Positions 1,536 through 63,988 of a DNA stretch of 64,000 bases are shown here, piece after piece (the stretch's first letter is position 1; every line of letters starts with the position of its first letter). The notes beneath the pieces were generated by a model, which ran no database searches, was not told the DNA's origin, and saw only the letters and a list, made by a program, of their open reading frames with translations. This stretch comes from Candidatus Niyogibacteria bacterium (GTDB lineage Bacteria; Patescibacteriota; Minisyncoccia; HO2-45-28): the NCBI GenBank assembly GCA_016432485.1, contig CP066691.1, forward strand, positions 452,709-516,708, read 5' to 3'. The position numbers and the translations under genes were made by a program.

Positions 1536-4217
1536 TCAAATTATTCCAAAAAAGAACTTCTTGATATTCGCGGCGTCTCTTGAAAGCCACCGAGCATTCA
1601 TCCGTATGTGCTCAAGCGACTGTTCAATGGTGCGTTTGGCCGACGGCACGGGATGAGAAGCAAAAAATTCTTCTATTTCACGGGCCTTGCCTTCGGAAAC
1701 AAAGTCGTTGATAAGGCCGCCGATTATGCTTTGAAACATAAAAATTCCGCCGTCCGAATAGCGCCTACTTAACTCCGCAAAATTATTCTTCAGAAATTCC
1801 CACGCCCGATCGCGAGCGTACGCGTTTGCGCCGACGCTTCCGCTGATGAAAAAGACGTCTTGAGGCCTCACTTCATCCGAGAGCATAAATTCAAGGACTG
1901 ATTCAATCAGAGCTTGGGACCTGAATTTTCCAAGCGCTCTTAAAATTCTGGTCTTTTCTTCCGAAAGGCCTGTCGCGCGGTAAAGGTCAAGCAGGGCATG
2001 GTATTCCGCGTCGCTTCCATGGTCGGCCACAATCGCGTATACCGCTTCCTTCAAGTCGGGACTGATAAAACCGGATTTGAATTGCCTATACGCCTCAAAA
2101 ACAGTCGCGGGGTCTTTAGCTAAATTTGCAAAACCCCTTAAAATACGGGAGCGCAGAAGTTTATCGGTGTGGGTTTCGTTATCTTTCTGTTTCCATCCGA
2201 CATGCTCACTGATATCTTTCATCAATAGCCGCGAAAAATCGACCAACCCTCCTGAAAAATCAGTACTACAGAGCAAATTATCAAGCGAAGCCAAAATGCT
2301 TAAAATTTCCTGCCAGACGGCGTAATTTCTTTCTCCCCTGTAATACGGAAGCAACGAAAGAAGTTCCTCGGCTGAGACGCGTCCGGAGCGCGCGTTATAA
2401 AAAAGGTCGCTCAAAACTCCGAAACGATCTATTGGCGGAAGGTCGCCATTTGATAAAGGGACGCGCAATTTATGCAGAAACTCGGGCTCGTAATGAACGC
2501 GGCAAAAAGCCATTTGACCGGTGTTGATTTTCAACCATGTGTTGCCGGCGCTGAAAAGCGACTGATAGTCGGCTTCACTGCTCGGCATAGTTACGCGCAG
2601 TTCTCCCAAACCGCCGAGCTCAATGCCGAGCGGAATGGTCCAACGTTTTCCCCTCTCTTCGGAATCCAGAGTTTCGCCGCTTGAAAGAAACCTTTCTTGC
2701 CCCAAAGACACAAAGCCGCCGTCAATCCTCCTGACAGAAACCGAGGGATAACCCGCTTGTTTTGTCCAGCCGTCCATAAAAGATTTCACCGATTTGCCTG
2801 AAACTTCTTCAAAAACTTCGTAAAGTTCATCGGTTGAAGCATTTTTATAAGCAAAACGAATCAAGTAGGCCTTAAGACACTTTCTGAAAACCTCTTCGCC
2901 AAGATATTCAACCAGCATTCTTATGACGCAAGCGCCTTTTGAATAACTTATGGCGTCAAATATCTCATTTATTTCAGCGGGGTCGTTAACTTCAACTTCA
3001 ATCGGGTGAGTGCTTTTCAGGCCGTCTTTGGAAAGAGCGTTCGCGTATTCCCCGGCGACGAATTGCGTCTGAATGTCCCATTCTGGAAACAAATAATCGG
3101 TGCATTTCGGCTCAAGAAAGCTCGCGAACCCCTCGTTAAGCCACAAATCGTTCCACCATTTCATTGTCACAAGGTCTCCAAACCACATGTGCGTGTTTTC
3201 GTGAATGACGACTTCGGCTACGCGCTGTTTGGCTGAAGCAGCGGAATTTTCCGGGTCGTAAAGAAGCGTAGTTTCTCTGTAAGTCACAAGCCCCCAGTTC
3301 TCCATGGCTCCCGAGGCAAAATCGGGAACAGCAACCAAATCAAGTTTTGGCAAGGGATACGGCACGCCAAGATATTCTTCAAAAAATTCAATGCTCTTTT
3401 TGCAAGTATCAAGCGCGAACCGGCCCTGCTCAACTTTTCCGGGCGTCGTCCAGACCCTGATGGGTTTCCCGGGAATAACTATTTTTGATTTTTGACCATT
3501 ACCGCAACATTCGCCCTCGCAACTTTCGGCCTCTAGTTCAAGATCTTTGGTCCTGGTTTCGATTGATTCAAATTCTCCAACCGCAAAAGCCAGAGCGTAA
3601 GTTGACATCGGCGGAGTTTTTTCAAACTGGATAACTTTAAAGGGCCAAAAATCGGGGCATCTCTGAACCGGCATATTGGACAAAACCTGCAGATGGCGCG
3701 GCACAATAAAAGCAATTCTGAAAGTCGCTTTTATCGCCGGCTCGTCCCAGCACGGGAAAGCCCTGCGGGCATCGGTTGCTTCAAATTGAGTACAAGCCAT
3801 CCATCTTTTTTCACCGTTCACTTCATAACTTGAACGATAAAAACCGCGCATTTTGTCGTTCAAAACTCCGCTAAAATTGATGGTGAGCGCGTATCTGCCT
3901 TTTTGGAAAACCCTATCAAATTTTAAAGTAACGGTCTCTGCCTCCTTATTAAATTCCGTACCCTGCAATCTGGGGATGAATCTGTCGCGAGCAATGACTT
4001 TCACGTTATATATTGAAAGGTCTACGGCGTGCAGGACGATTTCCGAGGTTTCTTCCAAAACTTCAATCTCTATCAACTCACTGCCATCAAAAGTGAATTT
4101 TTTAAGATTGGGAGTAAATGTCAAGTAATACTCATCGGGTCTTACATTTTTAGGAAGACGAACGCCGGGTCTTACAGCTGACGCTTCCGGACACACGATC
4201 CTGCCTCCTTTTTTCAA
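1536..4217 (-). CDS. pepN: aminopeptidase N, M1 family zinc metallopeptidase
   Basis: GAMEN motif 'SGAMENWGLV' and 'HENTHMWFGDLVT...WLNEGFASF' (HEXXH-X18-E). Confidence 0.85.
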   Translation of the reverse strand: MKKGGRIVCPEASAVRPGVRLPKNVRPDEYYLTFTPNLKKFTFDGSELIEIEVLEETSEIVLHAVDLSIYNVKVIARDRFIPRLQGTEFNKEAETVTLKFDRVFQKGRYALTINFSGVLNDKMRGFYRSSYEVNGEKRWMACTQFEATDARRAFPCWDEPAIKATFRIAFIVPRHLQVLSNMPVQRCPDFWPFKVIQFEKTPPMSTYALAFAVGEFESIETRTKDLELEAESCEGECCGNGQKSKIVIPGKPIRVWTTPGKVEQGRFALDTCKKSIEFFEEYLGVPYPLPKLDLVAVPDFASGAMENWGLVTYRETTLLYDPENSAASAKQRVAEVVIHENTHMWFGDLVTMKWWNDLWLNEGFASFLEPKCTDYLFPEWDIQTQFVAGEYANALSKDGLKSTHPIEVEVNDPAEINEIFDAISYSKGACVIRMLVEYLGEEVFRKCLKAYLIRFAYKNASTDELYEVFEEVSGKSVKSFMDGWTKQAGYPSVSVRRIDGGFVSLGQERFLSSGETLDSEERGKRWTIPLGIELGGLGELRVTMPSSEADYQSLFSAGNTWLKINTGQMAFCRVHYEPEFLHKLRVPLSNGDLPPIDRFGVLSDLFYNARSGRVSAEELLSLLPYYRGERNYAVWQEILSILASLDNLLCSTDFSGGLVDFSRLLMKDISEHVGWKQKDNETHTDKLLRSRILRGFANLAKDPATVFEAYRQFKSGFISPDLKEAVYAIVADHGSDAEYHALLDLYRATGLSEEKTRILRALGKFRSQALIESVLEFMLSDEVRPQDVFFISGSVGANAYARDRAWEFLKNNFAELSRRYSDGGIFMFQSIIGGLINDFVSEGKAREIEEFFASHPVPSAKRTIEQSLEHIRMNARWLSRDAANIKKFFFGII

Positions 4218-4267
4218 GGACCGAAAACTAATTTAGAGTTTAATGCCGCTATGTTATATTTACAAGT

Positions 4268-4837
4268 ATGAAAATAATAGTCGGGCTCGGAAATCCGGGG
4301 AGCGATTATTCCGAAACGCGCCACAACGCCGGACGGCTCGCTTTGGAATACTTTGCCAAGAAAAATGATTTTCCGGATTGGAAGGAATCAAACAAATATT
4401 TTTCTCTTATTTCGGAAGGGGAAATCGGCAAAAAGCCGGTTTTATTGTTATTGCCAGAGACCTTTATGAATAACTCGGGCAAGGCGATCGCGCATCTAAA
4501 AGCTAAAAGCTATAAGCTAAAAGCTGAATTGATCGTCCTTCACGACGATATTGATTTGCCGTTGGGAAAAATCAAAATTTCATTCGGTCGGGGTTCGGGC
4601 GGGCATAAAGGAGTTGAATCAGTAATCCGCGCGTTAAAAACAAAAGATTTTTGGCGGATTCGTATTGGCGTCTCGCCGAAAAACAAGCTGCCGCATAAAA
4701 AAATTCCGGACTTTCTGACCTCGCCTATGCGCAAACCGGATTTTGAAACACTCAAAAAGTCATTCAAAAAAATTTCCGAAGCGTTGGAAACCATGCTTTC
4801 GAAATCCCCAGAAAAAGCGATGAATTTATTTAATTAA
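4268..4837 (+). CDS. pth: peptidyl-tRNA hydrolase
   Basis: N-term 'MKIIVGLGNPGSDYSETRHNAG', Pth fold length; contains short in-frame tandem repeat aaagct(a)taagct. Confidence 0.85.
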   Translation: MKIIVGLGNPGSDYSETRHNAGRLALEYFAKKNDFPDWKESNKYFSLISEGEIGKKPVLLLLPETFMNNSGKAIAHLKAKSYKLKAELIVLHDDIDLPLGKIKISFGRGSGGHKGVESVIRALKTKDFWRIRIGVSPKNKLPHKKIPDFLTSPMRKPDFETLKKSFKKISEALETMLSKSPEKAMNLFN

Positions 4838-4875
4838 AAAGAAAAGGCGCAGCTCTTTGGCCGCGCTTTTTTATT

Positions 4876-5118
4876 TTACTCTCTGTTTCTCCAGCAGTCG
4901 CCCAATAAGCCGACCACCAGCATCAAAATCCCCAAGAAACCAAAAATTCCTGCTAAACTGCTGACTACTACCAAAGGAATATTAGGCGGGAAATCAAACT
5001 TAATAATAAATATCGTCAGGCCAAGAAGCGCGCAACCGATAAAAACGGCTATTTTATCCGGTTGATTCACGATAGTTATCCCCCTCCCATGATGGTTTTC
5101 CCCCTCTTGATTTAACAC
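4876..5118 (-). CDS. small 2-TM membrane protein; likely starts at internal GTG preceded by GGGAGGGGG SD
   Basis: hydrophobic helices; strong SD; sigma70-like promoter in conserved 34-bp element upstream. Confidence 0.35.
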   Translation of the reverse strand: MLNQEGENHHGRGITIVNQPDKIAVFIGCALLGLTIFIIKFDFPPNIPLVVVSSLAGIFGFLGILMLVVGLLGDCWRNRE

Positions 5119-5149
5119 TGCTCTGGCTTGAATTATGCCGATTTTAATC

Positions 5150-5183
5150 TAAAATGCAATAGTTGGCAGAAAAACCAACCAAA
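5150..5183 (-). promoter_or_regulatory. 34-bp conserved element (copy 1) containing TTGCAT -35 of a sigma70-like promoter for small membrane protein gene
   Basis: identical 34-mer at 6201-6234; on minus strand reads TTGCAT-N16/17-CATAAT. Confidence 0.4.
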
Positions 5184-5197
5184 TACCAAAACCTATT

Positions 5198-5236
5198 TTG
5201 CCCACATCGCTACGATCGTAGTGATGTAGGCAAAAC
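5198..5236. repeat. imperfect 18-bp-arm inverted repeat centred on acgatcgt, downstream of the wHTH gene
   Basis: tgcccacatcgctacgat/atcgtagtgatgtaggca; related sequence at 5838-5870 on the other side of the gene. Confidence 0.4.
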
Positions 5237-5253
5237 AAAAAGTGTATTAAAAA

Positions 5254-5811
5254 TTAGGATAAGTCAAAATGCAATTTAAGGTCGGCGTCCATTGACATTT
5301 TTTCTACGGTCAAAACTCTAACATGCTGCTGAACCTCAAAAAATTCGGCCAAAAAATTTATCTCATTCGAGCACTCGTACGGAAAAACCCACGTACTTTT
5401 TTGCAACTCATAAAATCCTAATTTTTTGAGTTTTTTTCGCAAAGCATCGCGCGCCGTTCTTTTTTTCTCCGGTATGTCAAAAACAACAATGCGCCATTTT
5501 TTGTCCCAACGCACCGGTTTGGCCATCTCGATCTGGTCCGGATTATAGCGCATGGCGAACCTCTTTCCCCTCTCATTAATAACAATTGACACGGTGCCGT
5601 CATCCTCGTCTTTAAAATTAACCAAGCGGTCATACTTAAATTCTCTTAACACCCTTCTTAAGGTGCGGCGGTCAACATCGCGCCATTCTTTAGACAAGTT
5701 CTTTATGATATGCCAGTTGGTTCGTGGCGAGCGCGAAAGCCCCATGGATATTCCGGCCACCAACAACAAAAGTATTTTTTGTTTAGTCGGACTATAATAA
5801 TATTTAGCCAT
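5254..5811 (-). CDS. putative regulator: N-terminal winged-helix-like domain plus C-terminal Cas2/VapD-like (PaaX-C-like) fold
   Basis: C-term 'RIVVFDIPEKKRTARDALRKKLKKLGFYELQKSTWVF' matches the Cas2 beta-alpha pattern; no cas1 or CRISPR array nearby. Confidence 0.4.
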   Translation of the reverse strand: MAKYYYSPTKQKILLLLVAGISMGLSRSPRTNWHIIKNLSKEWRDVDRRTLRRVLREFKYDRLVNFKDEDDGTVSIVINERGKRFAMRYNPDQIEMAKPVRWDKKWRIVVFDIPEKKRTARDALRKKLKKLGFYELQKSTWVFPYECSNEINFLAEFFEVQQHVRVLTVEKMSMDADLKLHFDLS

Positions 5812-59216: not shown

Positions 59217-59290
59217 CGGGACGTAGTATAGTGGTAGTACGTATGCATGGGGTGCATATAGTGGGAGTTCGATTCTCCCCGTCCCGACCA
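59217..59290 (+). tRNA. tRNA-Pro (anticodon GGG), CCA encoded
   Basis: manual cloverleaf: acceptor cgggacg/cgtcccg, D-stem gtat/gtac, anticodon stem tatgc/gcata, loop atGGGgt, T-arm gggag-ttcgatt-ctccc. Confidence 0.8.
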
Positions 59291-59418
59291 AGTTAAACTT
59301 TTTTTAAATCTTTTGCTGGGGACAGAGAGGTTGCCTCGCGGCCTCTTTCATTTGAAAATCAGGAGTGGTATTATCTAGTCGGCAGTATTTTAACTAATGA
59401 CTAAAGAAAGGGGGCCAA

Positions 59419-60696
59419 ATGCGCAATCTGGAAAACATTCTGGGACGCGTCCGAAAAAGCGCGGAACTGCTTGAACTCGGAGACAAATTAATCGAAATCC
59501 TCACCAGTTTTAAATGCATCTGGTCATGCGATCTTCCGGTAAAAATAAGAGGCAAACAGCAGTTAATACCGGCAGTACGAGTTTGGCATCGCTCCCCCCA
59601 CAACGATAAGCCCACAAAAGGCGGAATCCGCTTTCACCCGAATATCAAGTTAACCGATATGCAGGCGCATGCTATTGAAATGTCGCTTAAAAATTGGCTG
59701 ATGGAATTGCCCTTTGGCGGCGCAAAAGGCGGAGTGGCAATTGATCCCGGTAGATGCAGTAAATCAGAACTCAAAGCTATAACTGAAAAACTGGTGGATG
59801 AATTAGACGAACGCAATATGATCGGGCCGTATCTGGATGTTCCCGCGCCGGATGTCGGAACAAATCCTGAAATTATGAATTGGATTCGCCAGCGCTTTGC
59901 CCAAAGACGCCGGACGCGCGAAACAGCCCAATTCGCCGGCGTTGTAACCGGAAAACCGGTAGGCTACGGCCGCGACGGCATCCCAGGCAGAGAACAGGCA
60001 ACCGGCTATGGATTGATTGAGGTTCTGGAAATAGTCCTTAGATTGAAAAGAATTTCGCCGGATAATATGAAACGAGTAGCTATAATGGGCTTTGGAAATG
60101 TCGGAGCGAACGCGGCGCGTTTTCTGGCTCAAAAAGGCTATGAGATAATCGCTCTGGGGGATGTCGATGGCGCGGTGTACAGGCGCGACGGCTTTGACCC
60201 AGATGAATTATCGCGTGTAAAGACGCCCCATGAATTAAAAGCCGCGAAAATCACTAATCATGAACTTCTGGAACTTTTTGATATAGATATTTTGCTGCCG
60301 GCGGCTTTGGAAAACGTGATTACCGAAGAAAACGCTTTACACGTTAAAGCAAAAATTATTCTTGAAGGCGCCAACGGCCCGACAACGCCGGAAGCGGATG
60401 AAATTCTGGAAAGCCGAGAAATTTTGGTCATCCCCGACATACTGGCTAACGCCGGCGGCGTTACGGTTTCATTTTTTGAATGGGCGCGAAATACCGGATA
60501 CGCCAAAGATCCGCGCGTGCCGTTCAACACCGAATATGATAAGAGCATTCTAACGGCGATGTCAGACATACTGAAAAAAGCGGCGGTGGAAGTTTTTGAA
60601 TACAGCTCTAAACACCAGCTTTCATTACGTCAAGCGGCCTATACTGTTGCCATAAAACACGTGGCTTCCTTGCTTCGCGATAAATATCTCGTCTGA
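59419..60696 (+). CDS. gdhA: NAD(P)-dependent glutamate dehydrogenase (Glu/Leu/Phe/Val DH family)
   Basis: 'KGGIRFHP', 'LPFGGAKGGV', Rossmann 'GFGNVG'. Confidence 0.85.
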   Translation: MRNLENILGRVRKSAELLELGDKLIEILTSFKCIWSCDLPVKIRGKQQLIPAVRVWHRSPHNDKPTKGGIRFHPNIKLTDMQAHAIEMSLKNWLMELPFGGAKGGVAIDPGRCSKSELKAITEKLVDELDERNMIGPYLDVPAPDVGTNPEIMNWIRQRFAQRRRTRETAQFAGVVTGKPVGYGRDGIPGREQATGYGLIEVLEIVLRLKRISPDNMKRVAIMGFGNVGANAARFLAQKGYEIIALGDVDGAVYRRDGFDPDELSRVKTPHELKAAKITNHELLELFDIDILLPAALENVITEENALHVKAKIILEGANGPTTPEADEILESREILVIPDILANAGGVTVSFFEWARNTGYAKDPRVPFNTEYDKSILTAMSDILKKAAVEVFEYSSKHQLSLRQAAYTVAIKHVASLLRDKYLV

Positions 60697-60697
60697 T

Positions 60698-60730
60698 CAA
60701 ACAGGCGGCTCAAAGAGCCGCCTGTTTTTT
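60698..60730 (+). terminator. Rho-independent terminator after gdh
   Basis: aaacaggcggctc-aaa-gagccgcctgtttttt. Confidence 0.75.
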
Positions 60731-60736
60731 ATTTTC

Positions 60737-60756
60737 GTGTCCGCCCGGAAGGAATC
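60737..60756. repeat. 20-bp direct repeat of the tRNA-Lys 3' end (distal att-like copy)
   Basis: gtgtccgcccggaaggaatc identical to 61330-61349. Confidence 0.7.
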
Positions 60757-60785
60757 TCCCGCAACTCTAGCCGTCTTCCAATGCA

Positions 60786-60818
60786 GAAAAAAGAGGCGGT
60801 CTCTGTAGAAACCGCCTC
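60786..60818 (-). terminator. Rho-independent terminator for cassette gene 60843..61151
   Basis: gaggcggt-ctctgtagaa-accgcctc preceded by aaaaaaa (T-run on minus). Confidence 0.65.
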
Positions 60819-60842
60819 CCTATGTTGTGTGGAGCACAATCA

Positions 60843-61151
60843 TCACCGCACCCGAACGGTGCCGCCCTTGAAGATGACGCCCGCGCAGACGTACACCTCC
60901 GCGGGCTTGCCCGCTGGATTGGTTGCCTTCGCGGTAAACCGCGCTGCGTCCTTCTTGTCGCATCCCCGAAAGCCGACCGCAAACCAGGCATGGTCCACAA
61001 TCTGGATATTGCTGTATCCCTGTGCTTGGAGTGTACGGACAGCGACGTCCTGGCTCGCGAAGACACCCCTGCCGACTCCAATGAAGAGAGCGACAAGGAT
61101 GAGAATAACGTAGAGCACGATCGGCCCATCGTTACTGCTGTGCCCGCTCAT
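60843..61151 (-). CDS. small N-terminally membrane-anchored protein encoded on a GC-rich cassette next to tRNA-Lys
   Basis: GGAGGG SD 7 nt upstream of ATG; TM 'IVLYVILILVALFIGVG'; terminator downstream. Confidence 0.45.
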   Translation of the reverse strand: MSGHSSNDGPIVLYVILILVALFIGVGRGVFASQDVAVRTLQAQGYSNIQIVDHAWFAVGFRGCDKKDAARFTAKATNPAGKPAEVYVCAGVIFKGGTVRVR

Positions 61152-61332
61152 TGTTTCTCCCTCCTCAAAGAGCTGTTCTCTGCCACAGGGTTGCGGCAGA
61201 GATTATTGGTTTTTAGGGTTTCCAATAATAACCGAAATATAGCAGTAATCACCGTGAGGTCAAGACAAACAAAAAACCAGCATCCCTGCTGTTTTCGTAG
61301 CTAAAATCTTTAGCTTGCGCTTTTCTAAAGTG

Positions 61333-61405
61333 TCCGCCCGGAAGGAATCGAACCTTCAACCTTATCCTTAAGAGGGATCTGCTCTGCCAATTGAGCTACG
61401 GGCGG
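61333..61405 (-). tRNA. tRNA-Lys (anticodon CTT), CCA not encoded
   Basis: manual cloverleaf: acceptor ccgcccg/cgggcgg, D-arm gctc-aattggca-gagc, anticodon loop ctCTTaa, T-arm gaagg-ttcgatt-ccttc. Confidence 0.75.
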
Positions 61406-61877: not shown

Positions 61878-63380
61878 ATGATAACAAAAAGGCAAAAACA
61901 AACCCTCGACTTTATAACCGACTATCAGGAGCAGAAAGGATATGCCCCCTCTCTTGACGAGATACGCAAGAAATTAAAACTCTCGTCAGTTTCAACAGCC
62001 CATTTTCATGTTTCTAAACTTCGCGATTTGGGACTTTTATCCAAAGAAGAGAACAAACCGCGCTCTATTGAAGCGTTCGGTCGCGAAACAATGGTAAAAA
62101 TTCCACTTTTAGGGGCTATTGCTGCCGGTCAACCAATAGAGGCAATACAGAACAAAGAAATGATTGCCATTCCTAAAAGTAAGATCCCTTCTTCGTCAGA
62201 AGTTTACGCTCTCCGCGTGGTCGGGAGCAGTATGATTGACGAAAACATAAACGATGGCGATGTGGTTTTGGTGCGCCAGCAGGAAGTCGCGGAAAATGGC
62301 CAGCGGGTAGTCGCTTTGATAGACAATTACGAAGCGACGCTAAAAAAATTTTATAAAGAGCGCGGACATATCCGCCTACAACCTGCGAACAAAACTATGG
62401 AGCCGCTTATTTTTAGAAATGGGCGAGATGTTTCAATTCAAGGAATTGTGCTTGATGTTATTCGTGATGGGGGTTTTATGTCTCCAGTAGAAATTTATCC
62501 AGACGCAAAACTTCTTAATCGAGAAAGAAAAGTCAAAAATAGAGAAGCGAAAGAAAGGGCGCGGGGTGGTACAAAATTTCAAAAAGAAGCTTTTGCGGTT
62601 GCGCAAGCAAACGGCATTGAGAAGTTTACAGACAAAATTATATGTGGCGACAGCGGAGAAGTTTTGCGTAAAATCCCAACTGGTTCGATTGATATCATCA
62701 TTACATCCCCACCGTATAATTTTGGCCTAGAATATAAAGACGATAAGAAAAATGATGCGATTCATTGGGACGAGTATTTTAAGAAGATAGATACAATTTG
62801 GAAAGAGTGTGCGCGCGTTCTAAAACCCGGAGGACGGCTCTGCCTTAACGTGCAGCCGTTGTTTTCAGATTACATTCCGACACATCATTTGATGTCAAAA
62901 CAACTACTTAATCATGGGCTGATCTGGAAGGGAGAAATTTTGTGGGAGAAAAATAACTATAACTGCAAGTATACAGCATGGGGCAGTTGGAAAAGCCCCA
63001 GTATGCCATATCTAAAATACACGTGGGAATTTGTTGAAGTTTTCTCGAAAGATACACACAAAAAGACTGGCGACTCATCAAAAGCCGATATAACTGGTGA
63101 TGAATTCAAAAAATGGGTTTATGCAAAATGGTCCATCGCTCCCGAACGAAACATGAAAGAATACGATCATCCTGCAATGTTTCCAAAAGAGTTAGCAACG
63201 CGACTAATGAAACTTTTTAGCTATCAAGACGATATTGTGCTTGATCCGTTCAACGGCGCGGGGACAACCACGCTTTGCGCCGCAGAAACAGGCAGAAAAT
63301 ATATCGGAATAGATATCTCACCAAAATACTGCAAAATCTCCGAGAAACGAATAAAGGAAATCCCCGCGAAGTTATTTTAG
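61878..63380 (+). CDS. fusion protein: full-length LexA repressor (wHTH + S24 autopeptidase) joined to a beta-class DNA amino-methyltransferase (N4-C/N6-A)
   Basis: LexA: 'TKRQKQTLDFITDY...LDEIRKKL', 'LLGAIAAGQPIEA', 'LRVVGSSMIDENINDGDVVLV', 'ATLKKFYKE'; MTase: motif IV 'IIITSPPYN' preceding motif I 'VLDPFNGAGTT'. Confidence 0.7.
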   Translation: MITKRQKQTLDFITDYQEQKGYAPSLDEIRKKLKLSSVSTAHFHVSKLRDLGLLSKEENKPRSIEAFGRETMVKIPLLGAIAAGQPIEAIQNKEMIAIPKSKIPSSSEVYALRVVGSSMIDENINDGDVVLVRQQEVAENGQRVVALIDNYEATLKKFYKERGHIRLQPANKTMEPLIFRNGRDVSIQGIVLDVIRDGGFMSPVEIYPDAKLLNRERKVKNREAKERARGGTKFQKEAFAVAQANGIEKFTDKIICGDSGEVLRKIPTGSIDIIITSPPYNFGLEYKDDKKNDAIHWDEYFKKIDTIWKECARVLKPGGRLCLNVQPLFSDYIPTHHLMSKQLLNHGLIWKGEILWEKNNYNCKYTAWGSWKSPSMPYLKYTWEFVEVFSKDTHKKTGDSSKADITGDEFKKWVYAKWSIAPERNMKEYDHPAMFPKELATRLMKLFSYQDDIVLDPFNGAGTTTLCAAETGRKYIGIDISPKYCKISEKRIKEIPAKLF

Positions 63381-63988
63381 AGACGCTCTTTTAATGCGCG
63401 CTCAAAATATTTGATTGCGCGGTCTAATCTTTCGGGACGCAGTGGTTTATAAAACTGCTTTTTGTGTATTTCCCCTTTGATGTTTCGCTCTCCGTCCAGC
63501 ATAGTGATGATCTCAATGTCGAGATTTGGAAAATGATACTCAAGAACTTTGACCGATGGGCTTCCGCTCGGATGATCAACGGCAACGGAGTAATCGCCAC
63601 CAAGCATACTTTCTAATTGGAAAAGGCAGAATTTAAGTTTTGGAAAATGCTTTTTTAGCAAAAAGGCATCAACTAATATGCGTTTATACATCGCGACCTC
63701 TGCATACGCCTTACACTCAACTGAAAGCACAAATTCATCATCAATATAGACCTGTTTATCTTGGGACAGTTTATAAACATTTCCCCTTCCATCACTGATA
63801 GGATATTTTGTTTTGTTGATTTTGATGCGCAAAGGTTTGCCGCCGATATTTTTCCATGCGAGTAAAACCATCTCCTCGGCCATCGTCTCAACGAGCGTGC
63901 CCTTCAGCGAACGTAAAGTGCCGCCGGCACGAATGCGCCACATTTTTCGTATTGTTCTATTGTAGAATTTTATAAATCTGTTGAACAT
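63377..63988 (-). CDS. putative type II restriction endonuclease (PD-(D/E)xK-like), convergent partner of the methyltransferase
   Basis: 'YIDDEFVLSVECK' PD-x(n)-E-x-K-like motif; 4-bp tail-to-tail overlap with MTase gene; ORF starts 12 nt from the window edge (63988 of 64000), so the true start may lie further upstream. Confidence 0.4.
   Translation of the reverse strand: MFNRFIKFYNRTIRKMWRIRAGGTLRSLKGTLVETMAEEMVLLAWKNIGGKPLRIKINKTKYPISDGRGNVYKLSQDKQVYIDDEFVLSVECKAYAEVAMYKRILVDAFLLKKHFPKLKFCLFQLESMLGGDYSVAVDHPSGSPSVKVLEYHFPNLDIEIITMLDGERNIKGEIHKKQFYKPLRPERLDRAIKYFERALKERL

Follow-up and report, generated by a model that had tools for sequence, protein, structure and literature searches.

Genomic islands inserted in tRNA genes (tDNAs) are mapped by a characteristic signature, in which an intact tRNA gene is accompanied by a displaced fragment of the same gene (Islander, PMC4383910). 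Integrase-less, cis-mobilizable derivatives of ICEs (integrative and conjugative elements) and of IMEs (integrative and mobilizable elements), which are called cis-mobilizable elements (CIMEs), retain both attachment sites, attL and attR (PMC6323972, PMC5704250). Morons are independent transcription units equipped with their own promoter and terminator, as exemplified by HK97 gene 15 (PMC3594210). Here we describe a 573-bp islet beside a tRNA-Lys gene of a Candidatus Niyogibacteria bacterium that resembles each of these systems in part. The islet is located in a stretch of 64,000 nucleotides of contig CP066691.1 (GenBank assembly GCA_016432485.1, positions 452,709 to 516,708), which we call the window and whose coordinates are used throughout.

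For bacteria of the Candidate Phyla Radiation (CPR, or Patescibacteria), whose genomes are tiny and come mostly from metagenomes, mobile elements and the sites at which they integrate have been poorly mapped. With moderate confidence, we interpret the islet as an integrase-less, att-flanked segment that site-specific integration at tRNA-Lys left behind and that is now fixed in the chromosome. If so, the locus is an instance, defined to the nucleotide, of DNA acquisition targeted to a tRNA in a Candidatus Niyogibacteria genome.

A duplicated tRNA-Lys end flanks the islet

The islet occupies positions 60757-61329, between two copies of the 20-mer GTGTCCGCCCGGAAGGAATC, one of which overlaps a tRNA-Lys gene:

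61333-61405, minus strand: intact tRNA-Lys gene (anticodon CTT), the putative integration target; ARAGORN 61332-61405, Rfam RF00005 with 67.2 bits over 61333-61405
61330-61349, no strand assigned: proximal 20-bp repeat copy, putative attL core; exact match, composed of the last 17 nt of the tRNA plus CAC
60737-60756, no strand assigned: distal 20-bp repeat copy, putative attR core and displaced tRNA 3′ fragment; exact match

An initial annotation, made from the sequence alone, had described a 20-bp duplication of the tRNA-Lys 3′ end, and the duplication is indeed exact at both sites, with the identity of the tRNA confirmed by ARAGORN and Rfam. These two sites are the only exact matches to the 20-mer in the 64-kb window; no further match appears even when 3 mismatches are allowed, and the number expected by chance is 0 (100 shuffles). 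A repeat search across 58.9-62.0 kb likewise returned this sequence (D1) as the top and sole notable direct repeat. Read in the sense of the tRNA, the proximal copy consists of GATTCCTTCCGGGCGGA followed by CAC, and thus encompasses the 3′ part of the T loop, the T stem, the 3′ strand of the acceptor stem, the discriminator and 3 nt of the trailer. The tRNA gene is 93-97% identical to the tRNA-Lys genes of relatives L113 and L115, and it is preceded by its own promoter-like site at 61444-61416 (promoter scan).

The distal copy is located 593 bp downstream of tRNA-Lys in direct orientation. On its 3′ side are an A-tract and then the bidirectional, 13-bp terminator of a glutamate dehydrogenase (GDH) gene (60699-60727; terminator scan and fold). 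In the 56 nt upstream of this copy nothing resembles tRNA-Lys (shuffle p about 0.5), and the repeat is therefore sharply bounded. We also considered the distal copy as a decayed whole tRNA gene, which was rejected because no similarity extends past the 20-mer and no tRNA is detected there at E <= 1. A repeated tRNA-Pro end around the GDH gene was sought in the repeat search and is absent.

The sequence of the locus is the same, with 0 mismatches, in Logan contigs from >10 independent runs, of which contig L007 covers the region from GDH through IscA. The organism is present in runs SRR12113418-SRR12113432 and SRR4343429/30. This identity across independent assemblies indicates that the arrangement is not an assembly artefact. 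Other Logan contigs (L001-L006 and L101-L106) repeatedly end inside tRNA-Lys, at window position 61387 or 61360. These ends presumably mark a branch in the assembly graph, where the 5′ half of the tRNA is common to other members of the community, and they carry no evidence for an empty site.

The cassette is absent from syntenic relatives

Two relatives at the genus or family level carry the corresponding tRNA gene. In L113, the order is GDH (68% amino acid identity), a 74-aa open reading frame (ORF), a terminator, tRNA-Lys(CTT) and IscA, such that synteny extends to both sides, with one tRNA end and no cassette. The 3′ flank of its tRNA-Lys contains, within 10 nt, both an A-tract and a bidirectional terminator, which is the same layout as that flanking the distal copy in the window. 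In L115 (interval 4189-5514), an M50 peptidase gene, L28 and tRNA-Pro(GGG) are followed by two unrelated genes (209 aa and 73 aa) and by tRNA-Lys(CTT); there is one copy of the tRNA end, and both the cassette and GDH are absent. The initial annotation had stated that its reading would be refuted if relatives held the same 573 bp as conserved native sequence free of the repeat structure. Instead, L113 and L115 lack cassette and repeat alike. Both relatives have a single tRNA end, but among the available contigs no empty site is found at the strain level.

The convergent tRNA-Pro(GGG)/tRNA-Lys(CTT) interval (window 59217-61405) contains GDH and the cassette in the window, GDH and the 74-aa ORF in L113, and the 209-aa and 73-aa genes in L115. 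Among relatives, this interval is thus a hot spot of variation, and the 573 bp are an insertion in the lineage of the window.

The islet is one transcription unit of foreign composition

The islet constitutes a single transcription unit, with the following parts in order from the tRNA gene:

61296-61329, minus strand: arm adjoining the tRNA; from flank comparison, blastn against L113 and fold; weakly shared with L118
61270-61291, minus strand: hairpin CAGCAGGGATGCTG and a T run, a putative terminator-like insulator between tRNA and cassette promoter; terminator scan
61236-61263, minus strand: predicted cassette promoter, TTGACC, 16-nt spacer, TG-TATATT (extended -10); promoter scan, 10/12 matches with TG
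61177-61202, minus strand: stem-loop in the 5′ untranslated region (5′UTR) upstream of the Shine-Dalgarno sequence; the 71-nt leader 61152-61222 folds at -23.9 kcal/mol, z = -3.8
61159-61164, minus strand: Shine-Dalgarno sequence GGAGGG, 7 nt before ATG; sequence reading, aligned with family loci
60843-61151, minus strand: 102-aa ORF, gp39.1-like; ORF list, phrog_902 match, GC content at third codon positions (GC3) 0.73
60786-60821, minus strand: predicted cassette terminator, 14-bp GC-rich stem and T run; the 57-nt stretch 60786-60842 folds at -25.3 kcal/mol, z = -6.0
60757-60785, minus strand: distal arm, 29 nt from terminator to distal repeat; by alignment, unshared with other family loci

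This organization bears out the initial description of a compact unit with a GGAGGG Shine-Dalgarno sequence, a 102-aa membrane-anchored protein and a terminator, to which a promoter of its own can now be added. The value of ~60% GC given for the intervening DNA needs correction, as it holds only for the ORF (60%): the islet as a whole has 53% GC, the 130 bp nearest the tRNA (61200-61329) have 36%, and the window averages 44.8%. The GC3 of the ORF is 0.73, compared with 0.40-0.50 in ten host genes. The islet DNA is compositionally foreign. A 160-aa ORF on the opposite strand (60822-61304, plus) is reported by some gene callers (Logan L104 and L107), but it is antisense to the conserved cassette gene and we regard it as spurious.

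Several of the regulatory parts recur with related genes in other genomes. The tRNA-side arm begins with the 9 nt TTTAGAAAA (minus strand, 61321-61329) and continues with a small palindrome (61299-61315). Next to it, the hairpin CAGCAGGGATGCTG is 93% identical over 28 nt to a stretch right after tRNA-Arg in L009 and is also present in L118; the hairpin travels with the module, and its terminator-like form and position suggest that it could stop read-through from the tRNA. Equivalent promoters precede family members in L009, L013, L014, L016, L118 and L119. The stem in the 5′UTR is kept in L118 (~378-405), L119 (~2310-2336) and L013 (~4948-4975), with some changes on both sides, and in L119 its pairing is maintained through compensatory CC/GG to GG/CC exchanges. 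This hairpin could stabilize the mRNA or serve a regulatory function. Alignment reveals that the cassette terminator is conserved in L118, L119 and L013 as well.

Comparison with described elements

The islet resembles tDNA islands and prophages that depend on a tyrosine integrase (PMC4383910) in that an intact tRNA gene is accompanied by a displaced, directly oriented 3′ fragment, in which the identity block starts in the T loop and extends beyond the 3′ end. The DNA between the copies is also foreign in composition and absent from the genus- or family-level relatives L113 and L115. Unlike typical islands, whose size lies between several kb and hundreds of kb, the islet spans 573 bp, has one gene and carries no integrase, and the DNA beside its regenerated tRNA matches the native trailer of relatives. 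Because an integrase is missing from the interval, the islet falls outside the Islander class.

The structure of CIMEs is matched in that the islet is devoid of integration and transfer genes and is bounded by two identical att-like cores. However, it is far smaller than most CIMEs, resides in a CPR host and has no known cognate ICE, IME or phage (conjugative elements were not searched for). With morons, the islet shares an own promoter and terminator, deviant GC content, a small membrane protein, horizontal spread and phage homologues, but it occupies a bacterial chromosomal site that no prophage surrounds, rather than one between conserved phage genes.

Integron cassettes are likewise single-gene units of ~0.5 kb with recombination-site-like boundaries and no recombinase of their own. 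The islet differs from these in having its own promoter and a tRNA target, and in lacking an attC-type imperfect palindrome, a nearby IntI or attI, and an array. An integron cassette is therefore ruled out by the presence of the promoter, by the absence of an inverted-repeat site at the cassette end, and by the absence of an integrase among the window ORFs scanned. An insertion sequence (IS), DDE transposon or miniature inverted-repeat transposable element was also ruled out, because 60757 and 61329 do not carry terminal inverted repeats and the duplication consists of 20 bp of tRNA. The rve genes near family members in L008 and L119 are separate IS copies with their own inverted repeats.

The cargo is related to a phage protein

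The 102-aa protein, which is annotated as hypothetical in a Candidatus Niyogibacteria metagenome-assembled genome (locus tag HYY55_02795), has an N-terminal membrane helix (residues 9-27) and an alpha/beta domain of ~65 aa in an AF2 model (pLDDT 75.7). It has no Pfam family, but residues 33-101 match phrog_902 with an E value of 4.7e-10. Among 33 homologues with 41-83% identity, C64 is invariant and C89 is nearly so, and a profile search recovers 1104 cluster representatives at E <= 1e-3. Furthermore, tblastn identifies 1020 phage records, mostly from T4-like enterobacterial phages, some of which (VR7, RB16 and others) are annotated as gp39.1 (E 3e-8). The only significant fold matches, obtained with Foldseek against BFVD, are phage proteins of unassigned function (E 3e-5 to 6e-4), one of which is annotated as a lipoprotein; solved structures offer no informative match. 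The family profile yields one distant match, L117, across IMG/VR viral contigs, and a literature search on gp39.1 returned nothing relevant.

Judged by these matches, the 102-aa protein is a homologue of gp39.1 of T4-like phages (phrog_902), with which it shares sequence, predicted fold, size and N-terminal anchor. The Patescibacteria subfamily differs in being much more conserved internally (55-83% identity). By analogy with membrane proteins encoded by morons, such as HK97 gp15 (PMC3594210), the protein may act at the level of the cell envelope, for example in phage exclusion. Should it prove to be a phage-exclusion or surface-modifying factor, this would be the first function for a family of >1000 clusters that includes a gene of T4-like phages.

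The module recurs in unrelated genomes

The phage affinity of the cargo and the recurrence of the module in many unrelated genomes go beyond the initial annotation. Among Patescibacteria-type contigs, the module of L118 is 76-80% identical at the nucleotide level to window 61295-60787, including the leading hairpin and promoter, and those of L119 and L013 have the same identity to window 61214-60790, which comprises the 5′UTR, ORF and terminator. Their neighbourhoods are unrelated: modules are found after GreA, after S18, before GroES, beside an IS, as tandem pairs and inside a phage-like contig. The GC3 of the gene departs from that of its host here (0.73 versus ~0.45), in L118 (0.70 versus 0.49) and in L008 (0.58 versus 0.81), and equals it only in the GC-rich L119 and in L009. 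These patterns show repeated horizontal transfer of the module as a ready-to-express unit, in keeping with the definition of a moron (PMC3594210), and this small gp39.1-related membrane protein is one that passes repeatedly among CPR bacteria and phages.

In 3 of the 11 contexts, a tRNA of the same orientation precedes the start of the gene or of its operon by no more than about 200 nt, namely tRNA-Lys in the window, tRNA-Arg in L009 and tRNA-His in L008. By a rough estimate, ~2-3% of genes stand first after a tRNA of the same orientation, which would place 2 or 3 of 11 at p of about 0.03-0.003. This placement is suggestive of cargo situated at the tRNA-proximal end of integrated elements. A search for flanking repeats, direct or inverted, near the modules of L118, L119 and L120 gave nothing convincing.

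Other arrangements were observed in these genomes. Directly after tRNA-Arg(GCG), L009 (4893-6090) carries two tandem family paralogues with near-identical promoter regions of their own (72% over 89 nt), and its terminators are repeated (87% over 38 nt) after the first paralogue and after a third gene of 85 aa. In L013, an unrelated downstream lipoprotein gene has the same promoter as the family member (85% over 53 nt). Common regulatory modules of this kind might mediate the shuffling of cassettes. The L013 contig also contains a GC-rich and structured-looking intergenic region of ~170 nt (4620-4790) between GreA and the cassette, which has no Rfam match at the gathering threshold and no tRNA.

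DDE (rve) IS elements adjoin family members in two unrelated contigs, at 5444-6334 in L008 and 1208-2250 in L119. The IS of L119 has 32-nt inverted repeats of its own and ends 4 nt before the cassette promoter. This adjacency may reflect coincidence or a common insertion hot spot. The phage-like contig L123 (1-9793) consists of 29 co-directional, overlapping small ORFs, and its family member is immediately upstream of a gene for tRNA-His guanylyltransferase (Thg1, phrog_4717, 1e-87).

Origin of the islet

In the history that we favour, an element whose attachment site included at least about the final 20 nt of a tRNA-Lys of the Niyogibacteria type would have recombined with the 3′ end of the chromosomal tRNA-Lys(CTT) gene. 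This event would regenerate the tRNA and displace its original 3′ end by 593 bp, to a position next to the GDH terminator. We infer that a tyrosine integrase made the junctions and that the remainder of the element was lost by deletion. In the streamlined genome this loss would most probably have included the integrase and have left the islet fixed, with a self-sufficient unit of phage origin, a moron, retained inside it. A fixed deletion remnant of this type is more likely than a cassette that is still moved in trans. The corresponding empty site is predicted to have tRNA-Lys(CTT) followed by ...CAC GAAAATAAAAAACAGG... and the GDH terminator, such that ...TTCGATTCCTTCCGGGCGGACAC is joined to GAAAATAAAAAACAGGCGGCTC..., and the circular form (attP) is predicted to contain the junction ...GGCTAGAGTTGCGGGA-GATTCCTTCCGGGCGGACAC-TTTAGAAAAGCGCAAGC....

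Delivery directed by the tRNA is supported by the native-like flank of the distal copy, by the start of the identity block in the T loop, and by the post-tRNA placement in 3/11 contexts together with the hairpin that is common to L009. The T loop is the canonical start of identity blocks formed by integrases. Integration into the tRNA gene, which the initial annotation had read from the repeat, is supported in part, by the geometry, by the foreign composition and by the absence of the cassette in L113 and L115; the native trailer beside the tRNA is a complication, and no empty site is found at the strain level.

These and other observations weigh against site-specific integration. No integrase is encoded in the islet, as the initial annotation had correctly stated, or in the 20 mid-size window ORFs scanned for domains. 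IMG/VR viral contigs contain no match to the 20-mer, to the distal junction or to the hairpin motif, and no attP-like sequence was found in them. The exact 20-mer is present in only five JGI metagenome contigs (four tRNA-Lys genes and L114), none of which offers a candidate attP; the copy in L114 was rejected as such because it is a chance match inside a 1205-aa gene of an organism with 62% GC. Every contig from the >10 runs that carries the identical GDH gene is either filled and identical or ends inside the tRNA. A look-up of the exact GDH and IscA proteins was used to seek alternative occupancy, and the precise junction predicted for an empty site is unseen among relatives and contigs of the same organism. 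Downstream of the family members in L009 and L008, the tRNA-Arg and tRNA-His ends are not repeated over >= 10 nt or over 18 nt with <= 3 mismatches, and the ten other family contexts, most of them away from tRNAs, have no tRNA-end repeats. A deletion remnant would also need one end of the deletion to fall no more than about 30 nt from one att core.

The 9 nt TTTAGAAAA at 61321-61329 match the native trailer of L113 exactly and that of L115 nearly so. Because the standard model derives these nucleotides from the element, the match is unpredicted by the simplest attL model. Either the arm of the element carried a clade-typical trailer, or the model misplaces the junction. If attP carried the clade-typical end together with its trailer, the trailer original to the window could be what forms the distal flank GAAAATAAA, separated by a 4-nt indel from TTTA-GAAAAATA. 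Alternatively, the distal 20-mer may be a truncated second tRNA-Lys gene or a fragment of donor DNA.

This last option belongs to a history in which no att recombination took place and the module was inserted beside tRNA-Lys(CTT) by illegitimate or homology-facilitated recombination, the distal 20-mer being the leftover of a second tRNA-Lys gene (such as Lys-TTT, whose 3′ end is the same) or a fragment borne by the donor. It would explain, with no additional assumptions, why the proximal flank has the native trailer of 9 nt that L113 and L115 also show, and other family copies have evidently been inserted without tRNA repeats. Moreover, the tRNA-Lys(TTT) genes of related organisms L112 and L116 end in the identical 28 nt and have a trailer, GAGAAAGAAA, that resembles the distal flank GAAAATAAAA. 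However, this resemblance is just 8/10 in A-rich sequence, and L112 and L116 have no synteny with the window, while the relatives that do, L113 and L115, have no second tRNA-Lys 3′ of tRNA-Lys(CTT). Residual tRNA similarity is absent from the 56 nt upstream of the distal 20-mer, and the truncation point falls at the T loop. On this evidence we hold such an origin to be rather unlikely. Readings in which the repeat arises by chance or from assembly, and the 573 bp are native, can be set aside almost entirely: we found no point in their favour, no chance matches are expected, many independent assemblies are identical, the cassette is missing from syntenic relatives and its codon composition is foreign.

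The 573-bp unit might instead still be mobile, as a miniature non-autonomous cassette with CIME-like and integron-like logic that keeps both att sites and is served by an integrase in trans, which a phage or island located elsewhere in the genome, or in the community, would supply. The two repeats match perfectly (20/20) although the distal copy is free of tRNA constraint, pseudogene remnants are absent and only ~30 nt of non-module DNA remain at each end, and the un-ameliorated composition implies a recent arrival. CIMEs are themselves defined by lost integration and transfer genes and by the retention of attL and attR (PMC6323972), and a module with the leading hairpin stands directly after a different tRNA in L009. 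Against this stand the ten repeat-free family contexts, the uniform occupancy in >10 samples, the missing cognate integrase and attP (20 ORFs, viral contigs), and arms that are very short for the attP of a tyrosine integrase; we judge continuing mobility to be unlikely. More improbable still is a broader proposal, that the gp39.1-like module belongs to a class of miniature, recombinase-less CPR cassettes captured at tRNA 3′ ends and shuffled in trans by integrases of phages or islands, or through recombination between common promoter and terminator modules, of which the window would hold an active member with its two att sites intact. If true, it would amount to an integron-like economy of single-gene, self-expressed envelope proteins of phage derivation in ultra-small genomes.

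In the favoured case of a fixed remnant, the mechanism is ordinary and the element probably dead or inert. Of more interest are the evidence for a very mobile gp39.1-like moron that is common to CPR genomes and phages, and a precisely mapped footprint of tRNA integration in a CPR genome.

Host neighbourhood

The locus has the order L28, tRNA-Pro(GGG), GDH, cassette, tRNA-Lys(CTT, convergent), IscA, a LexA-methylase fusion gene and a type II restriction enzyme gene, with the GDH gene convergent with the cassette. No prophage genes were found beside the islet, whose neighbours are GDH, tRNA-Lys, IscA and the restriction-modification pair, and the window otherwise encodes housekeeping functions that include ribosomal proteins, EF-Tu, SecY, RecA, PGK and TIM. 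A search of GTDB species genomes with GDH returned best matches of 36-43% identity from unrelated phyla; because no close relative is present among these genomes, GDH itself may have been acquired too.

Beyond IscA, the gene at 61878-63380 (plus strand) encodes a methylase (N6_N4_Mtase) fused to a complete LexA-like module, which consists of a LexA DNA-binding domain and Peptidase_S24. The convergent gene at 63377-63988 (minus strand) encodes a 203-aa type II restriction enzyme (PADLOC PDLC03499, 1.5e-53). A control architecture in which a methylase is joined to a self-cleaving repressor is unusual.

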